A DNA stretch of 61,214 bases from a virus. Taxonomy: Duplodnaviria > Heunggongvirae > Uroviricota > Caudoviricetes. Numbering within the stretch: position 1 is the first letter of the stretch; every line of letters starts with the position of its first letter. Location: IMG/VR virus record IMGVR_UViG_3300025887_000009, one strand, 5' to 3'. The translations under genes and the position numbers were made by a program. The notes below the pieces were generated by a model. The model had not been told where the DNA came from and did no database searches. It worked only from the letters and a program-made list of their open reading frames with translations. Shown here one piece after another: positions 3,933-53,223 of this stretch.

Positions 3933-4772
3933 ATGGTCAAGAAGTATTTCCCCAATGAGACAAAAGAACAACGCAGAAAACGAAAGCGTATCGAAAAAGA
4001 CAACCTCGTATCTGATTTCTCCCTCATAGAGGCTAAGCCTGATACTACAAATTTTTCGGGCTCTTCGCGGTATGTAGTTTGTCTCAAGCACGGAAACAAA
4101 TACGGTGCAGACTATGTAAATAATTTGCACCGTATGGTCAAACGCAATCTAACATTAGAATATACCTTTGTATGCTTTACAGAAGACGCGTCGGGCATCG
4201 ACGATGACATTACAATCATGCCGTTGCCAGTATTGCCTGTGCAAGGTTGGTGGTATAAGCCCATGTTTTTTGATCCAGATCTTGGATTAGAAGGCACTAT
4301 CTTGTTTATGGATCTAGACTTAATTGTATTTCGTAATATAGACAATTTGTTTACTTACGAACCTGATAAATTTTGCATCATACGCGACTTTAATCGGATG
4401 TCTGTTAAAAATTACAAAAAGATGAATTCCAGTGTATTTAGATTAAACACAGGCCAATGCAAGCATGTTTACACTGACTTTATAAAAGACCCAAAACTAA
4501 ATTCCAGAAGACATCATGGAGACCAGGAATGGATCTTTGCAAAATTAATGAACACTCCAGAGGTATACAAATATTGGCCGGACGAATGGATACAGAGTTA
4601 TAAATGGGAAATGAGAGGGAAACCTCAAATGACTCGAGACTCTCAAGGCAAACGAAACTTTGCTGTTGCAGGCAAACCTAAAGTCTTACCGCAAACTTCT
4701 ATCGCAGTGTTCCACGGTGATCCTAATCCCCATAACTGCATTGACGAATGGTGCAAACAGAATTGGAAATGA
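3933..4772 (+). CDS. GT-A fold glycosyltransferase (GT8-like)
   Basis: KYGADYV, FVCFTE, LFMDLD (DxD), NSSV, GDQ, VFHGDPNP motifs. Confidence 0.75.
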   Translation: MVKKYFPNETKEQRRKRKRIEKDNLVSDFSLIEAKPDTTNFSGSSRYVVCLKHGNKYGADYVNNLHRMVKRNLTLEYTFVCFTEDASGIDDDITIMPLPVLPVQGWWYKPMFFDPDLGLEGTILFMDLDLIVFRNIDNLFTYEPDKFCIIRDFNRMSVKNYKKMNSSVFRLNTGQCKHVYTDFIKDPKLNSRRHHGDQEWIFAKLMNTPEVYKYWPDEWIQSYKWEMRGKPQMTRDSQGKRNFAVAGKPKVLPQTSIAVFHGDPNPHNCIDEWCKQNWK

Positions 4773-4773
4773 T

Positions 4774-5064
4774 ATGATAAATCTTAATAAACATAAAGAC
4801 ATGTTTGCCCGCAGTCCTCGTAATAAAAATTCAGACATTGATCTTTTATCAACCAAAGTCAAAAAGCATAAGCGCATATATAGTCCTTTTGTGAGAGATT
4901 TCTTTTCAGGTAAGAGAATGTTTCTTAAAGAAGCCGTTGAAATACTTGTTGAATATAATGTATTAGTAGGCTGGGAGGATTACGATAACGAAAGATGGCA
5001 TGTACATTACCAAAGGGTCTTTGTAAATCCAACAAGATACACTTCTTTATTGCTTAATTCATAA
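4774..5064 (+). CDS. Hypothetical protein
   Basis: ATG 4774 immediately after upstream stop; fills the gap before the next late promoter. Confidence 0.5.
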   Translation: MINLNKHKDMFARSPRNKNSDIDLLSTKVKKHKRIYSPFVRDFFSGKRMFLKEAVEILVEYNVLVGWEDYDNERWHVHYQRVFVNPTRYTSLLLNS

Positions 5065-5071
5065 ATACTGT

Positions 5072-5365
5072 ATGAATTATTTAAACAGAATGTACGGACG
5101 TGGTACTCCGCCTCCTACTAAATCAGAAAAGAACCCTAACAGAGTTGCCGGTGGCATTAGAGGACAAGGCGGCGACGCTTTTGAAATTATTGCCGAAGAC
5201 GGTACAATGCAGAAGATCCCTACACAGAGATATGTACAAAGTCTAGAAGAACAGATTAAAGTACAACGTGGGGTAATAGCTGTATTAGAAAAGAAAATGA
5301 ACCGCATGACAAGATCAGTAGAAACCCTTGAAGGGCATATGTCTCGTTTAAGCGGAAGAGGATAA
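5072..5365 (+). CDS. Hypothetical protein with C-terminal coiled coil
   Basis: Preceded by TAAATA 5062-5067, 4 nt from ATG. Confidence 0.7.
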   Translation: MNYLNRMYGRGTPPPTKSEKNPNRVAGGIRGQGGDAFEIIAEDGTMQKIPTQRYVQSLEEQIKVQRGVIAVLEKKMNRMTRSVETLEGHMSRLSGRG

Positions 5366-5367
5366 TT

Positions 5368-5550
5368 ATGGATTACGTAACTAAAATTAAAGAATGGGCA
5401 ACAGCTCGTGCAAAAGAAATATCAACTCTAGACGGAAGTGTTCTTGTAGCAGTTGGAATTTGCGCCTTGGTGTTAAAACCTTTTATGGGCATTATCAGTA
5501 TTGGCGCTATTGCATACGGAGCATGGCGAATCTTTACAAAGGAAAGTTAA
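5368..5550 (+). CDS. Small membrane protein
   Basis: GAGG SD; 60 aa with two hydrophobic segments. Confidence 0.65.
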   Translation: MDYVTKIKEWATARAKEISTLDGSVLVAVGICALVLKPFMGIISIGAIAYGAWRIFTKES

Positions 5551-5834
5551 AGCTTTCCTATCGGCTTACTACTTGAGGCGCGGAGGTTCCATATTGATCT
5601 CTTCTCCGCGCCCCTTTTTTGCGCAAATCGTTTTGCGTCACAATTAGAACAAACATGAAAATAGTTGTTAGTAAGTCTTTTGGGATCCATTTTACGGCGA
5701 TTGCGTTCAAACACTTTGCTACAAGAATCGCAGCGTAATATCACCACAGTTGATTCACGAGTATAAGAATGCTCATGTCCGTTTTTACTCACACGGATGT
5801 GAGTGTTTTTTTCTATACGCTCGCCTAGGATCAT
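5547..5834 (-). CDS. Small zinc-ribbon protein
   Basis: CDSC and CSNC pairs; own minus-strand TAAATA at 5839-5844, 4 nt before ATG. Confidence 0.7.
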   Translation of the reverse strand: MILGERIEKNTHIRVSKNGHEHSYTRESTVVILRCDSCSKVFERNRRKMDPKRLTNNYFHVCSNCDAKRFAQKRGAEKRSIWNLRASSSKPIGKL

Positions 5835-5838
5835 ACTG

Positions 5839-5874
5839 TATTTACATTAAGCTTACAAACAATACATATAAATA
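5839..5874. promoter_or_regulatory. Back-to-back divergent late promoters
   Basis: TAAATA on minus strand (5839-5844) and TATAAATA on plus strand (5867-5874). Confidence 0.65.
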
Positions 5875-5893
5875 CAATAGAAGGAAATATACT

Positions 5894-6247
5894 ATGATTT
5901 TAAACCTCACCGAATCAGCAAATAAAAAAATCAACTCGCTATGCAGCGCCAAAGAATGCTTTGGAGTTACCCTTAACGTTAAGGGCGGCGGTTGTGCTGG
6001 GTTCGAATACGATTGGGGCTTCGTAACAGAAGATGAAGTAGAAAGCACAGACGAAGTGATTAACACCGGAACTGGCAACCTCGTTGTCGGCAAGGAAAGT
6101 GTTATGTTTTTACTCGGATCAACAGTAAACTATAAAGAAGAAATATTTGGTGCTATGTTTGATATTGTTAATCCAGCTGCATCAAGTGCATGTGGATGCG
6201 GTACCAGTTTTAACATGGATCCAAGCATATTAGCAAGTAAATTTTAA
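5894..6247 (+). CDS. iscA: IscA/HesB family Fe-S cluster carrier
   Basis: LTESA, KGGGCAGFEY and NP...CGCGTSF motifs; AAGGA SD before ATG 5894. Confidence 0.9.
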   Translation: MILNLTESANKKINSLCSAKECFGVTLNVKGGGCAGFEYDWGFVTEDEVESTDEVINTGTGNLVVGKESVMFLLGSTVNYKEEIFGAMFDIVNPAASSACGCGTSFNMDPSILASKF

Positions 6248-6258
6248 CGGAGTAATTA

Positions 6259-9200
6259 ATGGCTAAGCAGATAATCGATATTGGCGTAGAAGGCAATGAC
6301 GGAACAGGTGACGCACTGCGCGAATCATTCCGCAAAGCAAATGAAAATTTTACAGAGCTGTACGCAGCGTTCGGTGTCGAAGGACAACTTACGTTCGAAA
6401 ACCTAAGTGATACGCCTGAATCATTTATTGATAATGAGAATAAAGTTCCTGTTGTTAGCCCAACAAGTGATTCATTAGTATTTAGAGAATTTGTTTCTAA
6501 TGGTTTTCTTACTGATGACATTGCAGATGACACCGTACGCTTTGATTTCACAACAGATGGTAAGATTGTTGTAACAACACGTAACTCAGCAGTGATTGAT
6601 GACAAATCTCCTGCAATCGGCGGTCCTCTTAACAGTTCCAGTTTTGCAATAGGCAACGTAGGAACAACAGAAGAAGATCTGCAAAACTTTCTTACTAAGC
6701 ATAGCGGAACCTTTGAAGTACAAGATCTCGTTCCTGATATTAAGTATGTTGACGAAAACTTTTTAACTAGAGGCAGCCCTGGCGAACAAGCAAACGTAAG
6801 AAGCGAACCAGGTAACATAAGCGAATACACGCTTACAATTTCTGGCTTTAGCAGCAATGATGCTACAGTAGCCGATCACGGACTTACTACTGCAAGTACA
6901 GGCGCTGCATACACTTATTCAAGCACCGGTACTGATGCTACAAATTTAACATCTGATACTGTTTATTATGTTCGTCGTCAAGGAGCCAATGCTATCGGGC
7001 TATATCCCACAGCAGACGATGCCATTGCAGATACTAACCAGATTGTTGTATCCGGCGGCTCTGGCACACAGACATTGGTTAATAGCGAATACGATAGTGA
7101 ATTGTTTGGCAACTGGCTCGGTAACGAAGCACTACCGCGTGATAGCGTTGTTCGTCGCCAAGGTGATCAAATGGCTGGTGATTTTTATCTAAATGATCAC
7201 CCCGGTAGTCTTGCCGGCACAATAGGCGCAGGCGGTCTAGAAGATTACAAAGCTGCTACAAAATTTTATGTGGACCAAAACAGTTATTATTCGCCATCTA
7301 GTATCTATGTAAGCACCATCGGTGATGATACAATGGCCGGGGTCCCACTTCCGGACCATGGCAGATCGCAGCAATCTGCGTATGCTTCTATTAACAAAGC
7401 TTGCGAAAAAGCAGAAGAGATTATGCTAGCATCTCCAGCAGAGCCGGGTCCGTACATGCAATCCATTCGTTATAACGAATCTGCCGATGCATCATTTACT
7501 ACTTCGACTGGCATTAAGACTATAGTTCCAGGCAGACTTCCTATTAAGACATTAATCGACTTGAACAAAGAATTCATGATCGAAGAAGCCATTGCATACA
7601 CTTCTGTAACGTATCCAGATTTCATATACAACGAAGCTACATGGCGTGATAATATAGATTTTATGATCAAAGCTATTGTACTTGATACATTATCTGGTAC
7701 TAATGCAAACACCCTGAGTAGAACAGCAGGTCTACGTTATTATTCAAGCCCAGCAGCGCAACGTGCAATTAGCGAAGAATTGACTCAAACCATTGCTGTT
7801 ATTAACAAAGTTAAAGTATTAGCAAATGACGTAATACAAAATAACACAATCACATCTCTTCAAACAGGCGATGCATTAATTACGCAGACTATCGACCTAG
7901 GCGAAACTGTAGACGCAACTGGTATTTCATCTGTTGCTGCTAAATTTGAAATCATCAAAGATATCATTGCAGATGGGCCGCTTCTTGCTCCTGAAATCGT
8001 TGACGGCTCTGTATACGAAATTGAATTTAGCAACGGTGGCACAGGAAACGTAGACCAAGGCAAACCATCCAACACCGACTTACTGCCGGGTAAAGTTGTA
8101 CGCGGTAAAGCATCAGGTGCTCTTGGACGTATTGTGACTTACTCTCGTGATACTGACGTCGGGGTTGCAGACTCATTGGAACTAGTGTTGCTAGAACCTG
8201 TAGAATTTGAAGTAAATGAAGAATTAGAATTTGGTAACCTTGTTAACAATTCACAAGTAACGATATTAATCGAATCAGGAATTTATTACGAAGACCTGCC
8301 AATTAAAGTACCTGCTAACGTATCAATAAAAGGCAGCGAATTTAGACGCGTAATTATACGTCCTGCGGATCGTGCTTCGCAATCTCGCTGGGCAAACACT
8401 TATTTCTATCGTGATTTAGAATTCGACGGACTAACAGGCGGCGTAGATAGTATAACCGGCATCGGCGATCCCGGATTGCCTACTGCTGGTACAGCATATA
8501 CTAATCCAGTAACTAACGATGTTGATGGATATTTTGGTAGACATTATCTTTATGATCCAACTGCTGATGTTAATGTATCTAATTTCGGTGCAACTAACGT
8601 AGGTGAATATAATGATGCTGCCGAACTAATCAATCGTAACAGAGCATTTATCATCGAAGAAGTGTTTCAATATATCGAGGCAACTTATCCTACACTTACA
8701 TATAATTTTACAAAATGTCGTAGAGATGTCGGATTAATTCTTGATGCTATTATTTCTGACTTAATTAATGGCGGTCGTAAAAATACATTACGTGCCCAAG
8801 GTGCATATTTTTACCAAGGCACTGATTTAGTTCGAGGCGATCAAGCAGACGAAACTGAAGATTCGATTAATTATATTAAAACCATTGCAGCCGATGTATT
8901 AGCAAATACTGCATTTACTGCACTCGGAACAGTTGATCAGGTAATCGACACAGATTACACTATAAGTGGTAATGCAATTACTACGTTTAACTCGCTTGTG
9001 TCTCTTGTAACATATGCATTTGATCCTGCGTATAATCCACCAAGACATAACAGAGATCTCGATGTTTTCCTAATGAATGATGCCACTGTTTTAAGAAATG
9101 TAACAGTTCAAGGTCAAGGCGGATTCATGATGGTTCTTGACCCTGATGGTCAAATACTTACTAAAACACCGTATTGCCAAACCGGTTCGTCATTTTCCCA

Positions 9201-12200: not shown

Positions 12201-14619
12201 AGGCGTAGCAAGTTTTGATAGTAGCACGTTTACTGCAACAGACGGATGGATTAAGATAACTGACGGTGCTGTAACACTTGCAAAACTTGCAAATCTTGCT
12301 AACAATAGAATGCTAGGTAACATTAGCGGAGTTGCTGCGGCACCATACGGTATTCCGACAACCTCGGGTTCAGGAGCAAGTAGTGTTCTACTTACGCAAG
12401 CAGATGGTTCAATTCGTGTCGAAAGTCTAAGACTAGGAGGCAACAACACATACGAAGTTATGAGCTTGTCAGGCACACAATTAAATATCAAAACACCAGG
12501 GCAAGGCGTTGTGCTTACTGCTAACGGAACTTCTAGACCAATAGTAAACATTCCGGGCAATCTGTCAATGGGCAGTGCAAGCACAACTGAATCTACATTC
12601 CAGGCAGCGTCAACACTTGCTGGAGAAAGCAACATTTCGTCTGACTGGTTATACACTTCATTCATCGAAGCAACTGGGGAACGAAACGCTACTTCAACAG
12701 GTATTGCACTCGGAGCAGGTACAGGCTTTACAGTTGCTGACGAAATTGGATTAATTGCAAATGGTAAGATGCCGTTTAAGATTACCGGAACCGGAGTTGT
12801 TCCTGATCTAACTGCAACATATAATATCGGTACATCTTCTGCTACCTACAATAATGTGTATACCGAAACCATTGCCAATGCTAGTGCTGTAGAGATTGCA
12901 ATTGGTGCTGCGGTGCCATTTATTGCAAATGCATCAGGATTTGTTCCAGACACTGACGCAGCGTATAATATCGGTTCGTCGTCATTTGGATACAATATTG
13001 TGTATACAGGAACTGTGTCTGATGCGTCAGAGGTAAAGATTGCAATCGGTGCAGCATCGCCATTTAAAGTTAGCGCAACAGGCATAATACCAGATGTTGA
13101 TTCGACTTATAATATCGGATCGGCGACGTTTAAATACGGTACTGTATACGCAGACACGTTAGTAGGCGACGGTAGCAATATAACAAACGTTCCGTCAGCT
13201 GGTACTTCTGAAGCAATTTCTACTGTACTAACTGGAACAAATGCTACACATTACCTAACATTTGTTAACAGCAACAACGGAAGTTTAACTTCTGAAACAT
13301 TATATACCGATGCAGGAATTACGTACAATCCAAGTACAAATGATTTAACTACAACTGGTGATATAGTAGCAGCTAGTTTCTCAGGTGATGGTAGTGCATT
13401 AACAAACGTTGCGGCGGCTAGTACCTCCAACGCAATTGCTACTATATCAACTGCAACAAATTCTGCTCACTACCTAACATTTGTTAACAGCAATAACGGA
13501 AGTTTAACTTCTGAATCCTTGTATACTGATGCAGGAATTACGTACAACCCAAGTACAAATGCGTTAACTACAACCGGTAGCATAGTAGCAGCCAGTTTCT
13601 CGGGCATCGGCAGTGCACTAACAAACGTTCCGGCAGTTGCTATTGATACTATAGCAACTGCAACAAATGCTGCACACTACGTAACATTTGTTAACAGCAA
13701 CAATGTCGGTGCAGCAAGCGAAACATTATATACTGATGCAGGAATTACGTACAATCCGAGTACAAATGATCTAACTACAACCGGTGGTATAGTAGCAGCT
13801 AGTTTCTCAGGCGACGGTAGCGGATTAACAAACGTTCCCGGTGCAGGTAGTTCTTCTACAATTGCTACTATTGCAACTGCAACAAACGCTACGCATTATC
13901 TAACATTTGTTAATAGCAATAACGTTACTTCGGCTGCCGAAACATTATATACAGATTCCGGAATTACGTATAATCCAAGCACTAACGCTTTAGTTGTATC
14001 TGGTAACGTAACACCGGATGCAGACAATACCAGATTCATCGGATCTGTGTCTAGAGGATATAATACAATATATACAGGAACTGTTGCAGATTCTACAGAA
14101 GTAGAAATTGCAATTGGCGCAGCTTCGCCGCTCACTGTTACTGCAACCGGTATTGTTCCAGACACAACAGCAACGTATGATATCGGATCAGCGTCATTTG
14201 CTTACAACGTAATTTACGGTACTGCTACATCAGCTAGATATGCTGACTTAGCAGAAAATTATGTTGCAGATGCAGAATACGAACCGGGCACAGTACTAGT
14301 ATTTGGCGGCGAACACGAAGTTACTATTGGTTCAACTAAAGGTGATACAAGAGTTGCCGGTGTTGTCTCAACTAATCCTGCACACCTAATGAACAGTGCA
14401 CAAGAAGGTGACTACGTAGTAGCACTTGCTCTACAAGGACGTGTTCCTACTAAAGTGCTTGGCAAAGTACAGAAAGGTGACTTGCTTGTTACTTCTCCAA
14501 TACCAGGATATGCTTGTGTAGATAACTCAGCTCGTTCAGGCACTGTGATAGGTAAAGCACTAGAAAACAAAACAACCGACGAACGCGGTGTTATTGAAGC
14601 AGTTATAGGAAAAGTATAA
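6259..14619 (+). CDS. Very large virion protein (baseplate/tail fibre) with gp9/gp10-like N-terminus, internal repeats and C-terminal intramolecular-chaperone-like domain
   Basis: 2786 aa; IDIGVEGNDGTGDALRESFRKANENFTELY N-terminus; DAATKNYVD; C-terminal ADLAENY...GTVL..GG...AGVVS.NP...ALQGRVP...GKALE. Confidence 0.75.
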   Translation: MAKQIIDIGVEGNDGTGDALRESFRKANENFTELYAAFGVEGQLTFENLSDTPESFIDNENKVPVVSPTSDSLVFREFVSNGFLTDDIADDTVRFDFTTDGKIVVTTRNSAVIDDKSPAIGGPLNSSSFAIGNVGTTEEDLQNFLTKHSGTFEVQDLVPDIKYVDENFLTRGSPGEQANVRSEPGNISEYTLTISGFSSNDATVADHGLTTASTGAAYTYSSTGTDATNLTSDTVYYVRRQGANAIGLYPTADDAIADTNQIVVSGGSGTQTLVNSEYDSELFGNWLGNEALPRDSVVRRQGDQMAGDFYLNDHPGSLAGTIGAGGLEDYKAATKFYVDQNSYYSPSSIYVSTIGDDTMAGVPLPDHGRSQQSAYASINKACEKAEEIMLASPAEPGPYMQSIRYNESADASFTTSTGIKTIVPGRLPIKTLIDLNKEFMIEEAIAYTSVTYPDFIYNEATWRDNIDFMIKAIVLDTLSGTNANTLSRTAGLRYYSSPAAQRAISEELTQTIAVINKVKVLANDVIQNNTITSLQTGDALITQTIDLGETVDATGISSVAAKFEIIKDIIADGPLLAPEIVDGSVYEIEFSNGGTGNVDQGKPSNTDLLPGKVVRGKASGALGRIVTYSRDTDVGVADSLELVLLEPVEFEVNEELEFGNLVNNSQVTILIESGIYYEDLPIKVPANVSIKGSEFRRVIIRPADRASQSRWANTYFYRDLEFDGLTGGVDSITGIGDPGLPTAGTAYTNPVTNDVDGYFGRHYLYDPTADVNVSNFGATNVGEYNDAAELINRNRAFIIEEVFQYIEATYPTLTYNFTKCRRDVGLILDAIISDLINGGRKNTLRAQGAYFYQGTDLVRGDQADETEDSINYIKTIAADVLANTAFTALGTVDQVIDTDYTISGNAITTFNSLVSLVTYAFDPAYNPPRHNRDLDVFLMNDATVLRNVTVQGQGGFMMVLDPDGQILTKTPYCQTGSSFSQSLNRQAFRGGMLVDAFASNIPITVDSKADAFTLNVSSPAGTGLFVRRPQTPAPFYIDGIRFQVNSITNYDQQSGTCTLLISDSTNDSNGFTGVTSVSATGVDLDSLPVSITLQTAGNRSALANNFTQINDLGYGLICTNGGTSEIVSQFTYYCWSSSYSKNGSEIRSLNSSSAYGEYGLIAEGADPNEIPDSVTLRNNMLQPFKTFESEVTLTLTGVVSVVAGETLTQAVSGATGDVIFDTDANQVYLTNTSGTFDTSNTITGSTSGALGAASVPTIASATAATNTLNGLTLYVYDLDYKPQNRSEIDMIHDSGTIARYEVSNVQLQTDIIVGGIIDPTYTGGTGTGAEFNVKKTVDNGYIVDVVNGGTSYLVSDTITIDGADLGGITSTNDLVITVTTVDAGAITEYTVAGTVATNTDTPNKDGQVYKLNFTTGSAGFSEGGLVEATASNVPGTLRQNGVFVLNDVFDQNTLISNPGAAIVLDSTPTTTYRSIAFAATESTGEDLATDSVLATFDTNYDYVRLIVDSTEAANADPRGGGGTMGNSVGDTIIAVEPLDETAIARINAGDLVFGWDGKLHRIATYTDRTTYATIEFTDVDGSDIINAASSSSGLITSAVQGIQTITLRAGLVSGAEADITANVSTCRATGHDFLNVGTGGFNTSNYPNVLLGLPRDPAQANEVNERNKGRVFYVSTDQDGFFRVGRFFTVDQGTGTVTFAASIALSNLDGIGFKRGVVVAEFSTDTSMGANATDVVPVQSAVRGYVNRRLGFDHNGVAVNNTIGPGVVAADGGELASDLNAASFKITSLGAPSQGSDAATKNYVDQGFVRISAFGDIRNVFEGTWTGDQLLVASGLKRIFVNEVANGPFVPGDVFTTIGGKQGTVVEVETISNDIIYGDAVTLSYVPDLGVIAEEEEITSGSKTANVLAGPFDEITNATVAGDIEASVTRSTGSTSIDLSLVANTIINNDINASAAIAQSKLDLNAATTRANATGISQNDLGVASFDSSTFTATDGWIKITDGAVTLAKLANLANNRMLGNISGVAAAPYGIPTTSGSGASSVLLTQADGSIRVESLRLGGNNTYEVMSLSGTQLNIKTPGQGVVLTANGTSRPIVNIPGNLSMGSASTTESTFQAASTLAGESNISSDWLYTSFIEATGERNATSTGIALGAGTGFTVADEIGLIANGKMPFKITGTGVVPDLTATYNIGTSSATYNNVYTETIANASAVEIAIGAAVPFIANASGFVPDTDAAYNIGSSSFGYNIVYTGTVSDASEVKIAIGAASPFKVSATGIIPDVDSTYNIGSATFKYGTVYADTLVGDGSNITNVPSAGTSEAISTVLTGTNATHYLTFVNSNNGSLTSETLYTDAGITYNPSTNDLTTTGDIVAASFSGDGSALTNVAAASTSNAIATISTATNSAHYLTFVNSNNGSLTSESLYTDAGITYNPSTNALTTTGSIVAASFSGIGSALTNVPAVAIDTIATATNAAHYVTFVNSNNVGAASETLYTDAGITYNPSTNDLTTTGGIVAASFSGDGSGLTNVPGAGSSSTIATIATATNATHYLTFVNSNNVTSAAETLYTDSGITYNPSTNALVVSGNVTPDADNTRFIGSVSRGYNTIYTGTVADSTEVEIAIGAASPLTVTATGIVPDTTATYDIGSASFAYNVIYGTATSARYADLAENYVADAEYEPGTVLVFGGEHEVTIGSTKGDTRVAGVVSTNPAHLMNSAQEGDYVVALALQGRVPTKVLGKVQKGDLLVTSPIPGYACVDNSARSGTVIGKALENKTTDERGVIEAVIGKV
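13165..13990 (+). repeat. Four tandem intragenic repeats of about 69-73 codons
   Basis: HY(L/V)TFVNSNN...E(T/S)LYTD(A/S)GITYNPSTN occurs four times with high nucleotide identity (near 13250, 13470, 13675, 13895). Confidence 0.9.
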
Positions 14620-23729: not shown

Positions 23730-24223
23730 TTCGAGCAATACTAGCATGTGACGAACATTGGGGCATAGGCAAAGATAACACTTTGCCGTGGCCGCATAAT
23801 CCTGCAGATTTAAAATGGTTTAAAGAATCCACCGACAACAGTGTTGTTATAATGGGCCGGCACACTTGGGAAAGCTTGCCAAAGAGACCGTTGCCTAATC
23901 GCATCAACTATGTGATTGCGTCTAATCCTGATATTTCTCCAGGATATTATGGGAGATTCTCCGTAGCAAATCCGAACAAACTCGGAAAAGCAATTACAGC
24001 TATAATACAAGATCGACATATTACACAGTCGGACATATGGATTATTGGTGGATCACAGCTGGTTAATAGTTGCCTTAGTATAATCGACGAGATTTGGCTT
24101 AGTCGAATCTCAGGCACATACAGTTGCGACACGTTCCTTCCTCGCACTGCAATCGAACTAACTTTTAGATTAGACAGCACCGAAGACATAAATGGATTGT
24201 GTATAGAAAAATGGAAAAAATAG
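23726..24223 (+). CDS. folA: Dihydrofolate reductase
   Basis: GIGKDNTLPW, DLKWFK, VIMGRHTWESL, PLPNR, IIGG, CDTF. Confidence 0.95.
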   Translation: MIRAILACDEHWGIGKDNTLPWPHNPADLKWFKESTDNSVVIMGRHTWESLPKRPLPNRINYVIASNPDISPGYYGRFSVANPNKLGKAITAIIQDRHITQSDIWIIGGSQLVNSCLSIIDEIWLSRISGTYSCDTFLPRTAIELTFRLDSTEDINGLCIEKWKK

Positions 24224-24450
24224 ATTATATTAAACGATTTGCGTACTTACCGACGCGGTTAGATTCCGGTTGGATATGGCTCAAAACTTATTGGATTAAA
24301 GCAATACATTTTGACCCGCCATTACGGATGCACAATCCGGTTGGATATTCTTATTATGTCGGAGGAAGATACTACCGGCTATCTCAATACGAAAGAGAAA
24401 AAGACGAAACAATATATCTACTAACTAATCAAATAGACAAGAAGAATTAA
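24211..24450 (+). CDS. Accessory hypothetical protein (slot allele A)
   Basis: ATG 24211 overlaps DHFR end; KRFAYLP...IWLKTYW. Confidence 0.6.
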   Translation: MEKIDYIKRFAYLPTRLDSGWIWLKTYWIKAIHFDPPLRMHNPVGYSYYVGGRYYRLSQYEREKDETIYLLTNQIDKKN

Positions 24451-24512
24451 TAAAAGAATATTTAAACGCACTAGAATATATTAAAGAAAACGGACTTCAT
24501 ATAGAAAAATGG
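24450..24512 (+). repeat. Chimeric junction: copy of thyA 5' end fused to a DHFR-like 3' end
   Basis: 24453-24478 identical to 24787-24812 (thyA, ATG replaced by ATA); TATAGAAAAATGG at 24500-24512 identical to 24202-24214 of the DHFR gene. Confidence 0.85.
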
Positions 24513-24787
24513 CCAAGGATACAATAGTTATTAAAAAGTTTTCATTGGAAAAGAACAATGGCTGGTTTCGTGAAACCATTGCTCAAAAAAAATATGCTTG
24601 GCTGCCACGGATTATTTCTAATAAACGTATATGGAGAGAATACTATTTTAAAGTAACTTCGTCGTTTGAACCAATTAATCTTAGCGAGCCCGGAATGGTT
24701 CACAACGAATATGAATTTTATACTGAAAAAGAGTTTACACTATATTTATTAAGAGAGCAAGCAGGAATTAAAAAGGACCCACTATGA
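24509..24787 (+). CDS. Accessory hypothetical protein (slot allele B, distant paralogue of 24211 ORF)
   Basis: KKYAWLP...IWREYY and LYLL motifs resemble the 24211 ORF; ATGA overlap with thyA. Confidence 0.6.
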   Translation: MAKDTIVIKKFSLEKNNGWFRETIAQKKYAWLPRIISNKRIWREYYFKVTSSFEPINLSEPGMVHNEYEFYTEKEFTLYLLREQAGIKKDPL

Positions 24788-43051: not shown

Positions 43052-43780
43052 ATGCAAGACATCCTTAAGGATATTGTGGCACATACTCACGCGCTTGGGT
43101 TTTTGCCATTAGTTAAAGTAACAAATGACGACAGTACAACAATCGAATCAATGGCAGAAGATCGAACCGTTGTTCTTAAAGCTACTACAAATGCAAAAGT
43201 TGACGAATTCAAAGGCACATTCGGTATGCCTAACCTCGACAAGCTTTCGTTGCACTTGAAGAATCCAGAGTATCAAAAAGATGCAAAGATTGAAGTAATC
43301 GAAGGCGAGCGCAACGGAGAGACAATTCCGACTCATATTCACTTTGCAAACCAAGCAGGCGATTTCGAAAACGATTACCGTTTTATGAATAAAGCAAGCA
43401 TTGACGAAAAACTAAAAACAGTTACGTTTAAAGGTGCAACATGGGATGTAGAAATTGATCCTACTTCAGAAGCAATTGCGCGTATGAAATTGCAAGCCGC
43501 TGCGTTATCAGAAGAGACAGTGTTTAACGTAAAGACAGAAGACAACAATCTTATTGTTAGCTTTGGCGATGCGTCGAGTCACACTGGCAAGTTTACGTTC
43601 ATGCAGAACGTAACAGGCAATCTAAAGCATCAATGGTCTTGGCCTATTGCTGCTGTAATATCAATTCTGTCACTTAATGGACATATTACAATGAAGCTAT
43701 CTGATCAAGGTGCTATGATGATCAGTGTTGCTAGCGGACTTGCAACTTATGAGTACATCTTACCTGCGCAGGCAAAATAA
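43052..43780 (+). CDS. Sliding clamp (T4 gp45/PCNA-like)
   Basis: 242 aa, follows polB; alternating beta/alpha pattern ending in YEYILPA like clamp proteins; clamp loader present in window. Confidence 0.65.
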   Translation: MQDILKDIVAHTHALGFLPLVKVTNDDSTTIESMAEDRTVVLKATTNAKVDEFKGTFGMPNLDKLSLHLKNPEYQKDAKIEVIEGERNGETIPTHIHFANQAGDFENDYRFMNKASIDEKLKTVTFKGATWDVEIDPTSEAIARMKLQAAALSEETVFNVKTEDNNLIVSFGDASSHTGKFTFMQNVTGNLKHQWSWPIAAVISILSLNGHITMKLSDQGAMMISVASGLATYEYILPAQAK

Positions 43781-45393
43781 TGAATACAGACTTAACCGCA
43801 GCACAAAAAGATTATGCGCTGTTCTTGCCGGCGTTGAGTGGTTTTTATGCCACTTACGTCGGTAAACAGCGGTATGATCAATATGTAGATCCAGCGCGTA
43901 TTCCCAAAAATCTTACCCACGGCATGGAAAGTCTAAACTATCTTAACAAAAAAGAAGGACAGTTTCATTTCATTGGACTTCATTGGACTCTATACTCTGC
44001 AGGACACGCAGAACTAGATACTGCAAAGCATTCACCTAAAGAAGATATGATTCGTAATAGAGATCGTAAAAATTCTTGGATGCTAGGCGACAGTGGTGGC
44101 TTCCAGATCGGTAAGGGTGTTTGGGAAGGCAACTGGGGCGATCCTAGTTGTAGCAAAGCAATGAAGAAACGAACCGATGTTCTAAAATGGATGGACGCTT
44201 ACGCAGATTACGGAATGATTCTTGATATTCCGGCATGGGTTTCTCGTTCTCCTGCAGGCGCAAAAGCAACTGGTATTACGTCATACCAAGGAGCAGTTGA
44301 CGCTACACGGATCAACAATGACTATTTTATCAAACACAGAAATGGTAATTGTAAATTCCTAAACGTATTGCAAGGCGAAACATTCCAACAAGCAGACGAT
44401 TGGTATATGCAGATGCGCGACTTCTGTGATCCTAAGAAATATCCTAATGAACACTTTAACGGGTGGTCAATGGGTGGTCAAAATATGTGCGATGTTCACC
44501 TTGTATTAAAACGATTAATTGCATTGCGCTTTGACGGTTATCTCGAAAAAGGCATTCACGACTTTATGCACTTCTTGGGTACATCAAAACTCGAGTGGGC
44601 CTGTCTTTTAACTGAAGTGCAACGTGCTATACGCAAACATCACAACGAAAACTATACAGTAACATTCGACTGTGCTTCTCCTTTCCTTGCTACTGCTAAC
44701 GGACAGATTTATATCCAAACAGAAACAGTGCCCGACGGCAAATGGACTTATAGAATGCTTCCGTCTGTAGACGATAAAAAATATGCAAATGATCCCCGAG
44801 GGTTCAGAGACGCAGTACTGCAAGACGGGATTTTCAATAAGAAAGACTCGCAAGGCAACGTTACGTTGATTCGAGATTTTGTTGACTCGCCTATTAGCAA
44901 AGGCATGGGCATAAAAGATGTGTGTATCTATGCGCCGGGTGATTTGAACAAGATCGGTAAAGAAGGCAAGACCAGCTGGGATAGCTTTTCTTATGCACTA
45001 CAGATGGGTCACAATGTGTGGAGTCACATCAACGCTGTACAAGAAGCTAATAGGCAATGCGACGCAGGTGTATATCCGCATATGTTGATTGCATCTAAAC
45101 TTCATGGTAAAAAACTTAGAATGTACGATATGGATTTTTTCAAAGATATTGTAGATGCTATATTTGCTACCGATGATAGAGAAAAGGCAGAAGCGCTTGT
45201 TGAAGAATATCGCGCTTACTGGATGGACATTCCAGGAACGCGCGGCGCTATTGGTAAAAAGACTGTAAACTCTACTACGTATTTTAATAATCTTTTTGAA
45301 GAAGAGACTGTTGCTGTAGAAGAACCAGAAGCCGAAGACACCCTGTCTGAAGATAAATTAGAAGAACTCGAACACACACAGGATGATACATGA
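43780..45393 (+). CDS. dpdA: TGT-fold transglycosylase (DpdA-like 7-deazaguanine DNA insertase)
   Basis: MLGDSGGFQ, ILD.P, NVLQG, GWSMGG, HFLG, TFDCASP, HN motifs of the TGT family; folE/queD/queE in window. Confidence 0.75.
   Translation: MNTDLTAAQKDYALFLPALSGFYATYVGKQRYDQYVDPARIPKNLTHGMESLNYLNKKEGQFHFIGLHWTLYSAGHAELDTAKHSPKEDMIRNRDRKNSWMLGDSGGFQIGKGVWEGNWGDPSCSKAMKKRTDVLKWMDAYADYGMILDIPAWVSRSPAGAKATGITSYQGAVDATRINNDYFIKHRNGNCKFLNVLQGETFQQADDWYMQMRDFCDPKKYPNEHFNGWSMGGQNMCDVHLVLKRLIALRFDGYLEKGIHDFMHFLGTSKLEWACLLTEVQRAIRKHHNENYTVTFDCASPFLATANGQIYIQTETVPDGKWTYRMLPSVDDKKYANDPRGFRDAVLQDGIFNKKDSQGNVTLIRDFVDSPISKGMGIKDVCIYAPGDLNKIGKEGKTSWDSFSYALQMGHNVWSHINAVQEANRQCDAGVYPHMLIASKLHGKKLRMYDMDFFKDIVDAIFATDDREKAEALVEEYRAYWMDIPGTRGAIGKKTVNSTTYFNNLFEEETVAVEEPEAEDTLSEDKLEELEHTQDDT
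43969..43988 (+). repeat. 10-bp tandem duplication within the DpdA-like gene
   Basis: TTCATTGGAC TTCATTGGAC. Confidence 0.9.
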
Positions 45394-49646: not shown

Positions 49647-49675
49647 TTGACAAAAACCTAAATACATGGTATAAT
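49647..49675 (+). promoter_or_regulatory. Sigma70 promoter for folE with nested TAAATA
   Basis: TTGACA-17 nt-TATAAT; TAAATA 49659-49664 in spacer. Confidence 0.8.
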
Positions 49676-49728: not shown

Positions 49729-50415
49729 ATGGATACAAGTAAAACAATAAAAGACAGGATCGAAGCAGCAGGCGCGAGATATTGGGCCGGTGACAACATT
49801 TCTGAATTTATTCAAGAAGGTGAGAAGCAAAAGCTCATCGACGAACTTACAACAAAATTCGAAGACGTATTAGATTCGCTTGTAATTGACAGGCACAATG
49901 ATCCTAATTCAATAGACACTGGTAGACGTCTTGCTAAAATGTATATCAAAGAAATTATGAGCGGACGTTATGACAAGATTCCTAACGCAACTGCATTTCC
50001 AAATGATCCTAAAGACGGCTACGACGGTATGTTAGTAGTTCGCTCTGAACTTAAATCTATGTGCTCACATCATCACCAGCCTGTATCGGGCGTAGCTTAC
50101 ATTGGCATTATTGCTGCCAGCAAGCTGATTGGTTTAAGTAAGTACACCCGTATTGCACAGTGGTGTGCAAGACGCGGCACATTACAGGAAGAACTTGCTG
50201 TAGACATTGCCAGAGAAATCGAAAAGGCTACTGATTCGAAAAATATCGGTGTGTACATACAAGCTACACACGGTTGTTGCGAAAATCGTGGCATTATGGC
50301 ACATTCAAGTCTTACACAGACTACCGTGTTAAAAGGTGCGTTTAACGACGATCCTGCCACAAAGCAAGAATTCTTTGAAAATATTAAACTACAACAGGAG
50401 TTTGCACCGCGATGA
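49729..50415 (+). CDS. folE: GTP cyclohydrolase I
   Basis: T..RLAKMY, SMCSHH, IGLSKY.R, RR..LQE, HGC...RG. Confidence 0.95.
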   Translation: MDTSKTIKDRIEAAGARYWAGDNISEFIQEGEKQKLIDELTTKFEDVLDSLVIDRHNDPNSIDTGRRLAKMYIKEIMSGRYDKIPNATAFPNDPKDGYDGMLVVRSELKSMCSHHHQPVSGVAYIGIIAASKLIGLSKYTRIAQWCARRGTLQEELAVDIAREIEKATDSKNIGVYIQATHGCCENRGIMAHSSLTQTTVLKGAFNDDPATKQEFFENIKLQQEFAPR

Positions 50416-50705
50416 AATGGCTTAAAAGAAAAGCAAGACGAATGATAGAACAACTGTTGTACGACGTTGACGAAACTGATTCGAAAAAGTCGCACTCTTT
50501 AAACAGCGGCGTTGAAGGGAAGTACTTACATGCAGACCCTGTACTAAATTTTAAGATTTACAAAGCAAACAACGGACAGATATTAGAATTTAGAAGTTAC
50601 GATTCGCATAATGACAGGACAGATTCTGCTACGTATATAATCAACACAGACGAAGACGTTGCAGAAAAAGTAGCAAAATGTCTTACTAGGGAACTAATGA
50701 GATGA
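50412..50705 (+). CDS. Hypothetical protein
   Basis: ATGA-coupled to folE; F.IYKANNG.I.E. Confidence 0.7.
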   Translation: MKWLKRKARRMIEQLLYDVDETDSKKSHSLNSGVEGKYLHADPVLNFKIYKANNGQILEFRSYDSHNDRTDSATYIINTDEDVAEKVAKCLTRELMR

Positions 50706-51313
50706 AAAAGAGATTAGTTGCATTTGGTTGCGGAAATACATACGGCCACGGATTGGTTGACTGCATTACTGAGGACTGGAGGGCCGGACCGGTTCCTAGT
50801 AAGAATGCATGGCCTTCATTATTAGCATCTAAGCTAGATTTAATTTGCGTAAATGCCGGAATACCCGGTGCAAGTGTTAAAGAAATTTGGCATAAGATAA
50901 TCTATTTTGATTTTGAAGAAGACGATACTGTTATTATAATGTGGCCAGATAGAAGTAGATGGTGTATTTTTAAAGATAACAATGAAATATTTCAAATCAG
51001 TAATCAGTTATCTAACAAGGTATCTAAAACGTTTTATAGCTATTTAAATAATCCAAATGATCGATTAATTGAACTAAACTTATATATGTCGCATGTTCAT
51101 TTACTGTTAACGCAGAAGAATGTTAAGAACTATCATTTAAACTTTAGTTTTTTTAATTTTGTACAAGAGAGTTATAATGATTCAGAAGTTATCAAACTAT
51201 CGATAGAAGAACTTAAAAATCAATATCCGCTAGCAAAAGATAAAATACACCCCGGTGCCCTAGCACATGAAGCATTTGCTACTCAATTACACATTATACT
51301 GGATACAAAATGA
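50702..51313 (+). CDS. SGNH/GDSL hydrolase-like protein (block I Ser replaced by Gly)
   Basis: LVAFGCGNTYG, WP.LLA, N.GIPG.S, DKIHPG..AH. Confidence 0.6.
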   Translation: MKKRLVAFGCGNTYGHGLVDCITEDWRAGPVPSKNAWPSLLASKLDLICVNAGIPGASVKEIWHKIIYFDFEEDDTVIIMWPDRSRWCIFKDNNEIFQISNQLSNKVSKTFYSYLNNPNDRLIELNLYMSHVHLLLTQKNVKNYHLNFSFFNFVQESYNDSEVIKLSIEELKNQYPLAKDKIHPGALAHEAFATQLHIILDTK

Positions 51314-51699
51314 AAAATTTATTATCATATTCTGAATGGAAAGAAATCCATTCAGAAAACACTAAGTTTGAAGAAATAGAAGCAACAATTAAAAAATTAA
51401 ATTTCAAAGGTTATACAAGTTCGCTTGCGTGGAAAGATAAAACCGGCAAAGAATTGCTAGTAGAAACAAAGGTAATTGATCAACTATCTGACTTGCATAC
51501 TTATGATTTTTCTAATTGCTATCTTTATGCGCTCAATTTCATAGAATATACATATTATCATACACCTGAGGGCACTAATGCTTGGGATTATGATTTTATC
51601 GAATTGTCTAAATTTAATAAAGATATTCGTTACTCATATCGAATAAGATTTGCCGGATTAGAAAAGAAAAGGAACAAGTATGAAACTGCGTTACAGTGA
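51310..51699 (+). CDS. AT-rich hypothetical protein
   Basis: ATGA-coupled; 129 aa. Confidence 0.55.
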   Translation: MKNLLSYSEWKEIHSENTKFEEIEATIKKLNFKGYTSSLAWKDKTGKELLVETKVIDQLSDLHTYDFSNCYLYALNFIEYTYYHTPEGTNAWDYDFIELSKFNKDIRYSYRIRFAGLEKKRNKYETALQ

Positions 51700-51775
51700 A
51701 GCGTTTTACAGCGCACAAGGCGAAGACGTTGCAGAAAAAGTAGCAAAATGTCTTACTAGGGAATTAATGAGATGA
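51680..51775 (+). other. Chimeric 31-codon mini-ORF: QueE N-terminus fused in frame to the C-terminus of ORF 50412
   Basis: MKLRYSEAFYSAQGE-DVAEKVAKCLTRELMR*; 51667-51725 matches 52338-52396 (4 mismatches); 51721-51775 matches 50651-50705 (1 mismatch). Confidence 0.9.
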
Positions 51776-52332
51776 TCATAAGCAGAGTGTCGCCTAAGAT
51801 CATTAATACTTTTGCAAAACCGAAAAATTCAGATAGCAATGGAAAGTACGGAAATGCAATACAGAATTTATACGATTCTGCAGGGATCACAACTAGTCAA
51901 GGTTCTGGCAATGACATACCAGAGTTGCATTTAGAGATCAAATCTAGAGATCCTGTAAAAAATTGCCATATCAGCGTAGGATCATATAAACTTATCGATG
52001 TCGTTAATTCTAATGGAAAGTGCATGTTAAAGAAGATGCAGAAATGGAATTTACACAATCACACCGGCGGTGTAGTTACTAGCACTATCTATATAGATTT
52101 TACCACAATTCATAATGAACTTATAGTAGAGTTTGACGATCTAGCTAACCAACTGCGCAATGATCCATTAACAAAATGGACGTTAGCAAAGACTAATAAT
52201 TTCATAATCGAACGAGCTTCAGATGACGATGATGAATTAATAAAGCTAAGAATTAAATCATCTAAATTAAATGGATTAATACATCGATCCAAAACTGTAA
52301 ATCAGTTCAACAATTTATTTACGGAATGCTAA
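51772..52332 (+). CDS. Putative PD-(D/E)xK nuclease-like accessory protein
   Basis: G..G..I...Y and NDIPELHLEIKSR (D...ExK) pattern; AT-rich. Confidence 0.4.
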   Translation: MIISRVSPKIINTFAKPKNSDSNGKYGNAIQNLYDSAGITTSQGSGNDIPELHLEIKSRDPVKNCHISVGSYKLIDVVNSNGKCMLKKMQKWNLHNHTGGVVTSTIYIDFTTIHNELIVEFDDLANQLRNDPLTKWTLAKTNNFIIERASDDDDELIKLRIKSSKLNGLIHRSKTVNQFNNLFTEC

Positions 52333-52350
52333 AATGAAAAAGGAACAAGT

Positions 52351-53223
52351 ATGAAACTGCGTTATAGCGAAGCGTTTTACAGCGTACAGGGCGAAGGACA
52401 ATATGTAGGAGTACCTAGTGTATTCCTACGCACTTTTGGTTGCAACTTCCGCTGCATGAACTTTGGGTTGCCACGGGGTACTCCAAAAGATAAATACAAT
52501 CCAGAAGTCAAAGAACTAATTGACCAGGGGGTACATAAGAATACCCAAAATTTTAACGACTTGCCAATTATTCATACAGGTTGCGATACATACGCAAGTA
52601 TCTATCCTGAATTTAAAAGCCTTATGATGACTAAGACAGCTGACGAAGTTGCCGATCATCTACTAAGTATGACTCCAGAAGGCAAGTGGACTATGGATAA
52701 CGGACAAGACATCCACCTTATCCTAACTGGCGGCGAACCTTTGCTAGGATGGCAAAAGTTTTATATAGAGCTATTCGAGCATCCACGTATGCAGGATTTG
52801 AAAAATGTTACCATTGAAACTAATACTACACAGTTTCTACAGCAAGAATTTAGAGATTACCTTAAAGATCGGGCAGGATTTAAGGTTACGTTTTCGTGTA
52901 GTCCTAAACTTTCTGTTTCCGGTGAAGATTGGAGCGAAGCTATTAAGCCTACTGTTGCTGCCGATTATGCCAGCATACTTGATGCTGATATGTATCTCAA
53001 GTTTGTGGTTGCTGACGAAACAGATGTGGACGAAGTTGGGCAAGCTGTTGCTGCATACAGAGAACTCGGAGTTCAATGTCCTGTCTATCTCATGCCGCTC
53101 GGTGGGCGCTCCGAGGGTTATGCGCTTACAGAACAAAAAGTTGCAGAACTTGCAATGCAACAAGGATGGAGATTCTCCCCAAGAATGCATATCGGATTGT
53201 TCGGAAATGCCTGGGGAACTTAA
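52351..53223 (+). CDS. queE: 7-carboxy-7-deazaguanine synthase (radical SAM QueE)
   Basis: FYSVQGEG...G.PSVFLR.FGCNFRC...CDT (long insertion before third Cys), LTGGEP, IETN, SPKL, LKFVV, SPR.H. Confidence 0.9.
   Translation: MKLRYSEAFYSVQGEGQYVGVPSVFLRTFGCNFRCMNFGLPRGTPKDKYNPEVKELIDQGVHKNTQNFNDLPIIHTGCDTYASIYPEFKSLMMTKTADEVADHLLSMTPEGKWTMDNGQDIHLILTGGEPLLGWQKFYIELFEHPRMQDLKNVTIETNTTQFLQQEFRDYLKDRAGFKVTFSCSPKLSVSGEDWSEAIKPTVAADYASILDADMYLKFVVADETDVDEVGQAVAAYRELGVQCPVYLMPLGGRSEGYALTEQKVAELAMQQGWRFSPRMHIGLFGNAWGT

Follow-up and report, generated by a model that had tools for sequence, protein, structure and literature searches.

The folE-queE slot of the Caudoviricetes record IMGVR_UViG_3300025887_000009 (61,214 nucleotides (nt), hereafter the window) contains a junction at which a copy of the queE start is fused in frame to a copy of the end of gene X, the gene that follows folE. 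The junction stands between two accessory cassettes, A and B. With little more than even confidence, we favour an out-of-step recombination between two related phages which kept both cassettes, likely started by a cut made by B, a predicted nuclease.

Anatomy of the junction

Self-comparison of the window delimits two arms (Table 1). The left arm matches the ribosome-binding site and codons 1-15 of queE at 55/59 nt, with mismatches at positions 51694, 51697, 51714 and 51718. The right arm matches the 3' end of X at 54/55 nt, with one synonymous mismatch at 51764 (self-BLAST E-values of the arms, 3e-20 and 4e-18). All five mismatches are transitions. The arms overlap at CGAAG, and the match reaches 7/8 nt when the left copy's own CAA codon is counted; non-allelic sequences are thus joined at a microhomology that is perfect over 5 nt and imperfect over 8. 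The resulting open reading frame (ORF) has 31 codons and a stop that overlaps the start of B (ATGA); gene calls on another contig, of 4,209 nt, include it as well. The repeats, the switch at CGAAG, the ORF and the ATGA overlap are therefore as the first-pass annotation, made from the letters of the window, had described them. A queE start is present on both sides of B, and no second joint was seen at the X-queE locus.

That annotation also proposed looking through the genome for further start/end chimeras. A two-arm junction scan of the window returned, outside the repetitive fibre gene, this joint and a second in-frame joint between dfrA and thyA, and none in 10 locally shuffled windows.

Between 51680 and 51699, two of the changes counted as synonymous affect the overlapping frame of A2, the second gene of cassette A: the first abolishes a stop and the next makes one. 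The replacement change at 51714 lies 7 nt from the joint and produces, at an offset of one base, 4 nt that match X; templating or chance could account for it.

Table 1. Positions of the junctions, of the genes and signals of the folE-queE slot, and of a shared cassette in two relatives (L325 and L326).
Feature	Position	Strand	Basis or remark
Left arm: queE ribosome-binding site and first 15 codons, copied with 4 mismatches	51667..51725	+	Self-comparison
CGAAG microhomology, switch point	51721..51725	+	
Right arm: copy of X 3' end, 1 mismatch; provides the ribosome-binding site and start of B	51721..51775	+	
31-codon chimeric ORF, stop overlapping B start	51680..51775	+	
Sigma-70-type promoter match ahead of folE	49647..49675	+	12/12 positions
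folE, GTP cyclohydrolase I	49729..50415	+	
Gene X, 97 aa	50412..50705	+	Source of the right arm: last 55 nt (50651-50705)
A1 (cassette A), SGNH/GDSL-like protein	50702..51313	+	Weak library match; GC 33%
A2 (cassette A)	51310..51699	+	Tail overlaps the queE-start copy and includes a purine-rich ribosome-binding stretch
Cassette B, predicted MutH/Sau3AI-fold PD-(D/E)XK nuclease	51772..52332	+	D48, E55, K57
6-codon ORF coupling into queE	52334..52354	+	
queE, intact	52351..53223	+	Source of the left arm: 52338-52396
Older joint: thyA-start copy fused in frame to dfrA-end copy	24450..24512	+	Self-comparison, two-arm scan
Identical 1-kb GIY-YIG cassette and queD-start remnant	L325:6126-7589; L326:8341-9783		

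An assembly chimera of two strains is a very improbable source of the joint. The left arm encodes the end of A2, and A2 occurs on 7 contigs; B occurs on 8. These contigs come from four sources (JGI/IMG, Logan, ENA and MetaClust) and are possibly re-assemblies of the same samples; the mini-ORF recurs on the separate contig mentioned above. Moreover, an overlap of 5 nt makes no graph edge at usual k-mer sizes unless reads cross it.

The course of events that we favour is as follows. A phage carrying A and a phage carrying B would have infected one cell together, and the A genome would have broken near codon 15 of queE, likely cut by B. Its left end would then have been joined to the X end of the B genome at the 5-nt microhomology seen in the window, and the right side would have been rejoined through ordinary homology within queE. 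Because one side used microhomology and the other queE homology, B would have been added to A, not swapped for it. Since the joint keeps the frame and ends in a stop overlapping the start of B, ribosomes would pass through an operon served by one upstream promoter. Later, as suggested by the relatives L325 and L326 described below, the remnant may act as a built-in homology arm, or A or B may be lost by recombination between the repeats. On this reading the locus works like one-sided homing, with B as a candidate homing endonuclease.

Gene B, a predicted MutH-fold nuclease

Searches of Pfam, PHROGs, NCBIfam, PADLOC and PDB sequences gave no name for B, A2 or X. For a structural model of B (predicted local distance difference test score (pLDDT) 88; predicted template modelling score (pTM) 0.83), the best structural match was MutH (Z 12.4, root-mean-square deviation 3.5, 171 residues), followed by Sau3AI (Z 10.2 and 9.5) and BcnI (Z 8.1). 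Foldseek agreed on the fold (E 2.7e-4), and an Atlas search with B led to MutH/Sau3AI clusters. The D48/E55/K57 triad is invariant in 20/20 aligned sequences of the B family, 3/20 of which also give weak Pfam MutH matches (best E 2e-4). B is thus predicted to be a nuclease with intact catalytic residues, not a passive passenger; the first-pass annotation, which listed it as an accessory cassette, had missed both the fold and the triad. B shares fold and catalytic triad with MutH and Sau3AI but has only about 10% identity to them. Depletion of GATC is absent from the window, where the site stands at about its expected count (570 observed, 539 expected).

B lies between genes and is patchily distributed among relatives. 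Its homologues, as found by B queries in related sequences (numbered L and G), all lie inside one cluster running from the DNA polymerase and clamp genes to queE (L006, L041, L179, L216 and L321-L336). They occupy at least 5 different slots there, in which close relatives lack them. No match to a B homologue was obtained in G001, G002, G003, G005 or the 230 kb of G004 examined. A functional link between the B family and a base-modification pathway is possible.

Related junctions and the origin of the double slot

L326, L327 and L186 offer a parallel: U is followed by a B homologue, then by V' joined in frame to an end of U, by two other genes and by full V. Of the two single orders, L321 has the B-only one and L234 the other. 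The U copy in L326 differs from L234 at 10/100 nt, versus 15 from its own U; V' resembles V of L321 at 59% and full V of its own genome at 46%; the latter is 82% like V of L234. By sequence comparison the two arms sort to different parents, which is direct evidence of two-parent stacking. The out-of-register stacking put forward in the first-pass annotation thus stands as the best reading and gains direct support from L326, with the parents at the folE-queE locus itself being ones that we infer. The same annotation proposed to look for relatives with a single cassette, and for the L326 joint both single types exist. Single-cassette relatives were nevertheless rejected as proof of direction, because direct repeats allow collapse to either single state through loss of A or of B.

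A tract of about 1.0 kb (the tail of a foreign gene, a GIY-YIG gene and the start of queD) is 100% identical between L325 and L326, whose backgrounds are 74% alike. Both ends of this tract lie at a single conserved motif of queD, and L321 has no insert there. This pattern is as expected of homing with the remnant as homology arm, and the cassette is a strong candidate for a phage element like the yeast WHO elements discussed below.

Among the 80 distinct folE-queE intervals that we surveyed, a gene-end remnant was present in 0/68 short ones and in 3/12 of those longer than 400 nt. All three remnant-bearing intervals contain a homing-type nuclease, the remaining 9 long intervals having been checked for nucleases only in part; L023 has a GIY-YIG-like ORF without a remnant. 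L351/L352 carry X and 29 codons of queE, then a GIY-YIG-like gene (over 93 residues, 41% like a nuclease of the GIY-YIG type) and a diverged queE, with a queE-start remnant in the same slot as in the window. In L358 and L360, a new start comes after an HNH-type gene and continues in frame into a folE end, which in turn overlaps the start of queE. These HNH cassettes bring their own start onto the displaced folE end (L358:4430-4549 and L360:7927-8073), and in L358 a promoter-like sequence is also present there.

Further nuclease-linked cases are L114 (ferredoxin), L087, L275, L105 and L241; remnants within G001-G005 include those of L275 and L241. L114 has two insertions (4483-7384), each with a gene-start remnant, when compared with empty relatives that are 99% identical. 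Its incoming ferredoxin copy has an in-frame stop inside a 6-nt insertion, and a scarless homologous joint is seen in L114 versus L113. Hand curation gave 16 events including the two of the window, 11 of them adjacent to a nuclease (called by library, fold or pairwise support), one unconfirmed (the clamp-loader start in L114) and four without. This list is not a rate, because it mixes scans of unequal recall, some of them aimed at nucleases. Automated remnant scans were of uneven recall, with tRNAs, promoters and fibre repeats dominating their output, and a control of opposite geometry gave a similar raw count; we therefore give no genome-wide rate.

Among gene 3'-end remnants, an in-frame ATG was found in 6/8, and 5 of those 6 end overlapping the next start. 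This suggests selection for translational coupling; codon periodicity also favours in-frame joints.

The second joint of the window has the same anatomy. Its thyA-start copy is 40/44 nt identical (91%), with the ATG decayed to ATA. It lies between two small genes (24208-24450 and 24509-24787) that are about 27% alike, the downstream one starting inside the dfrA copy. The donor of its changes is not assignable, as the thyA and dfrA ends of relatives are too variable.

Two parents could also have been stacked by a chance break or by another enzyme, as in homology-facilitated illegitimate recombination (HFIR), with B as a passenger, perhaps a short-site nuclease retained next to the queE/folE cluster and directed against unmodified DNA. 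We regard this as a serious but unlikely alternative. Joints of the same anatomy without a nuclease (dfrA-thyA, L024 and L181) speak for it, as do the B homologues spread over at least 5 slots of the clamp-to-queE cluster, which mostly lack remnants. The mechanism is described (PMC3240628) and has been proposed for arrays (PMC5361080). Against it, every remnant in the slot survey adjoins a nuclease, and among random genes any flank repeat was found in only 6/281, the sole one at protein level being that of the GIY-YIG nuclease of L105.

The observations in this paragraph weigh against stacking started by a cut of B. In four of the remnants curated by hand, the slot is free of nucleases (dfrA-thyA of the window, L024, L181 and L017). 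Most B-family insertions are clean. With the group of the window excluded, a flank duplicate was found in 1/6 B-family groups with testable flanks, in a nuclease flank test that is partly circular because its seeds were picked from remnant cases; L330-L336 showed none. The driver of the stacking in L326 is ambiguous, because a B homologue lies to the left of the joint and a GIY-YIG gene 2.6 kb to its right. The MutH/Sau3AI fold usually recognises short sites, unlike classic homing enzymes.

The origin of the alleles also bears on the favoured reading. If the remnant is taken as neutral and the intact genes as accepting silent changes, four or more silent changes of five under in-place duplication have P = 0.04-0.19, depending on transition bias. 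The synonymous excess is therefore weak evidence for a diverged donor, which counts against the favoured reading. The first-pass annotation was right that the changes are mostly silent, but its step from there to a diverged relative is a weak one. The sole replacement, V12A, is absent from 46 distinct relative queE starts (0/46) and therefore looks like decay in place, which it probably is. A sister strain speaks for the favoured reading; it is represented on 56-81 contigs (B 94%, QueE 98%, plus neighbours). A1 and A2 queries gave nothing closer than 40% and 55%, respectively, thus no close sister-strain A1 or A2, and its X was not found either. These data fit a B-only strain, but the absence of A1 and A2 is no proof of one, because X is likewise missing. 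Sister-strain DNA was not found in viral contigs with X and B, in metagenome contigs with a piece of queE (38/64 parts) or in genome contigs with B.

We consider it improbable that the joint arose by tandem duplication at CGAAG within one genome, after which one copy had its cargo replaced or deleted and the mismatches appeared. Under duplication, four synonymous changes of five would not be rare (P up to the higher value above), and nuclease-driven tandem amplification at microhomologies has been shown for SegB in T6 (PMC13096335). The slot itself gives some support. The 13 nt upstream of both queE starts are identical; they lie inside the coding tail of A2, whose homologues end in the same register. 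In addition, the 6-codon ORF ahead of queE reads as the first 9 nt of A1 joined to the tail of A2, with a 5-nt repeat at the join, and is possibly the deletion scar of an older cassette A. Under the two-parent reading, these traces hint, weakly, that the B parent descended from an A-bearing phage which then lost A. However, duplication requires two or three events, yet the arms are 93-98% identical; in L326, L114 and L087 the copies are clearly from different alleles; and at dfrA-thyA the cargo genes have diverged to the likeness given above while the arm is still 91% identical.

The slot, its phage and known systems

Cassette A comprises two genes, and A2 terminates inside the queE copy in a different frame. 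At the position of the SGNH catalytic Ser, A1 has Gly (Ser in 4/4 aligned homologues) and may thus be inactive. A2 gave no useful Atlas match. The GC content of A1, A2 and B is 30-34%, versus 42-43% for folE and queE. A promoter scan of the region found no match within the slot comparable to that ahead of folE; other promoter-like sites reach 9-10 of 12 positions, and their total count is at shuffle level. X lies within 70 nt of queE in 7/14 distinct relatives that have both, so that an empty slot is common.

The window appears to belong to an uncultured jumbo phage. Its proteins are found on contigs of up to 208,784 nt, relatives reach 382 kb, and no cultured close relative was found (best QueE identity 43%). 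Over the whole window (1-61214), GGCC shows strong depletion (80 sites observed, 177 expected), and so do CTTA/TAAG. Tandem repeats of about 144-219 nt occur at 12780-14210 within a gene for a 2,786-aa fibre-like protein. A conserved 537-aa gene adjoining the clamp gene (43780-45393) has no library match; a TGT/DpdA-like role, conceivable for it, gained no library support. In L033, an exact 72-nt tandem duplication follows queE (853-996), of biological or assembly origin.

One-sided (illegitimate) homing with microhomology joints has been described for T4 (Edgell et al. 2010, PMC2988022). That system, with its free-standing seg/mob endonucleases, resembles our locus in having homology on one side and microhomology on the other, and in its patchy, intergenic nucleases near core genes of nucleotide metabolism. 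The T4 enzymes are of the GIY-YIG or HNH type, whereas B is predicted to have a MutH/Sau3AI fold. Among the listings of literature searches for a phage homing enzyme of the MutH fold were two general papers and none on such an enzyme. In islands of homing endonuclease genes (HEGs), fragments of essential genes adjoin phage nucleases, as here, and have been proposed as substrates of later homing; a PD-(D/E)XK HEG has also been noted (Barth et al. 2023, PMC10055350). Those islands have a bracketing pair of nucleases, while our locus has a single nuclease and an in-frame fusion of two genes that couples translation.

The yeast WHO elements likewise combine a nuclease with a duplicated piece of the neighbouring gene, which serves as a second homology, and insert additively, displacing older content (Coughlan et al. 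2020, PMC7282813). They differ in that the 3' end of FBA1 is duplicated, the nuclease is intein-related and allele-specific cutting has been shown; here, the copy is of a queE start and the nuclease is predicted. A bolder reading, which we hold to be rather doubtful, is that B is the founding member of a family of free-standing MutH/Sau3AI-fold homing endonucleases of jumbo phages. The X tail, B and the queE start would then form a WHO-like unit homing additively at codon 15 of queE, and in-frame mini-ORFs would be selected because they keep the operon translationally coupled.

HFIR shares with our locus an additive gain of genes that needs no integrase and leaves a displaced remnant; it differs in having been described for chromosomes of bacteria, in transformation or conjugation (PMC3240628). 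In Vibrio, immunity arrays built by HFIR have been proposed (PMC5361080). No integrase was found among the 36 window proteins scanned, which agrees with the description of the locus as an integrase-free route to accessory arrays; the route itself was already known, as HFIR or illegitimate homing. We set aside integration of the att type as improbable: the duplication concerns the ends of two different genes and not a single core. In T4-type phages, shuffling mediated by promoter/stem-loop elements (PeSLs) likewise uses short repeats for the gain and loss of optional genes (PMC2839356). PeSLs are repeated promoter/stem-loop elements, whereas the repeats here are coding gene ends; PeSL shuffling was therefore rejected, and the copies at 51667-51775 contain no promoter or terminator site. 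The parts of PMC3784515 and PMC12619734 drawn on hold nothing specific to this locus.

Altogether, the scar itself is ordinary; what is new is a mobile family of MutH-fold nucleases tied to one gene cluster, together with the recurrence of in-frame coupling ORFs. The claim that B cuts queE can be tested directly in vitro, because the joint gives an exact candidate cut site. If B is a homing enzyme, it would bring an additional fold to those of phages. The locus flags an unannotated nuclease family that, among the loci examined, is restricted to the queE/folE cluster, and it points to a mechanism by which accessory slots of phages may grow: one-sided repair, started by a nuclease, that adds genes and does not swap them.

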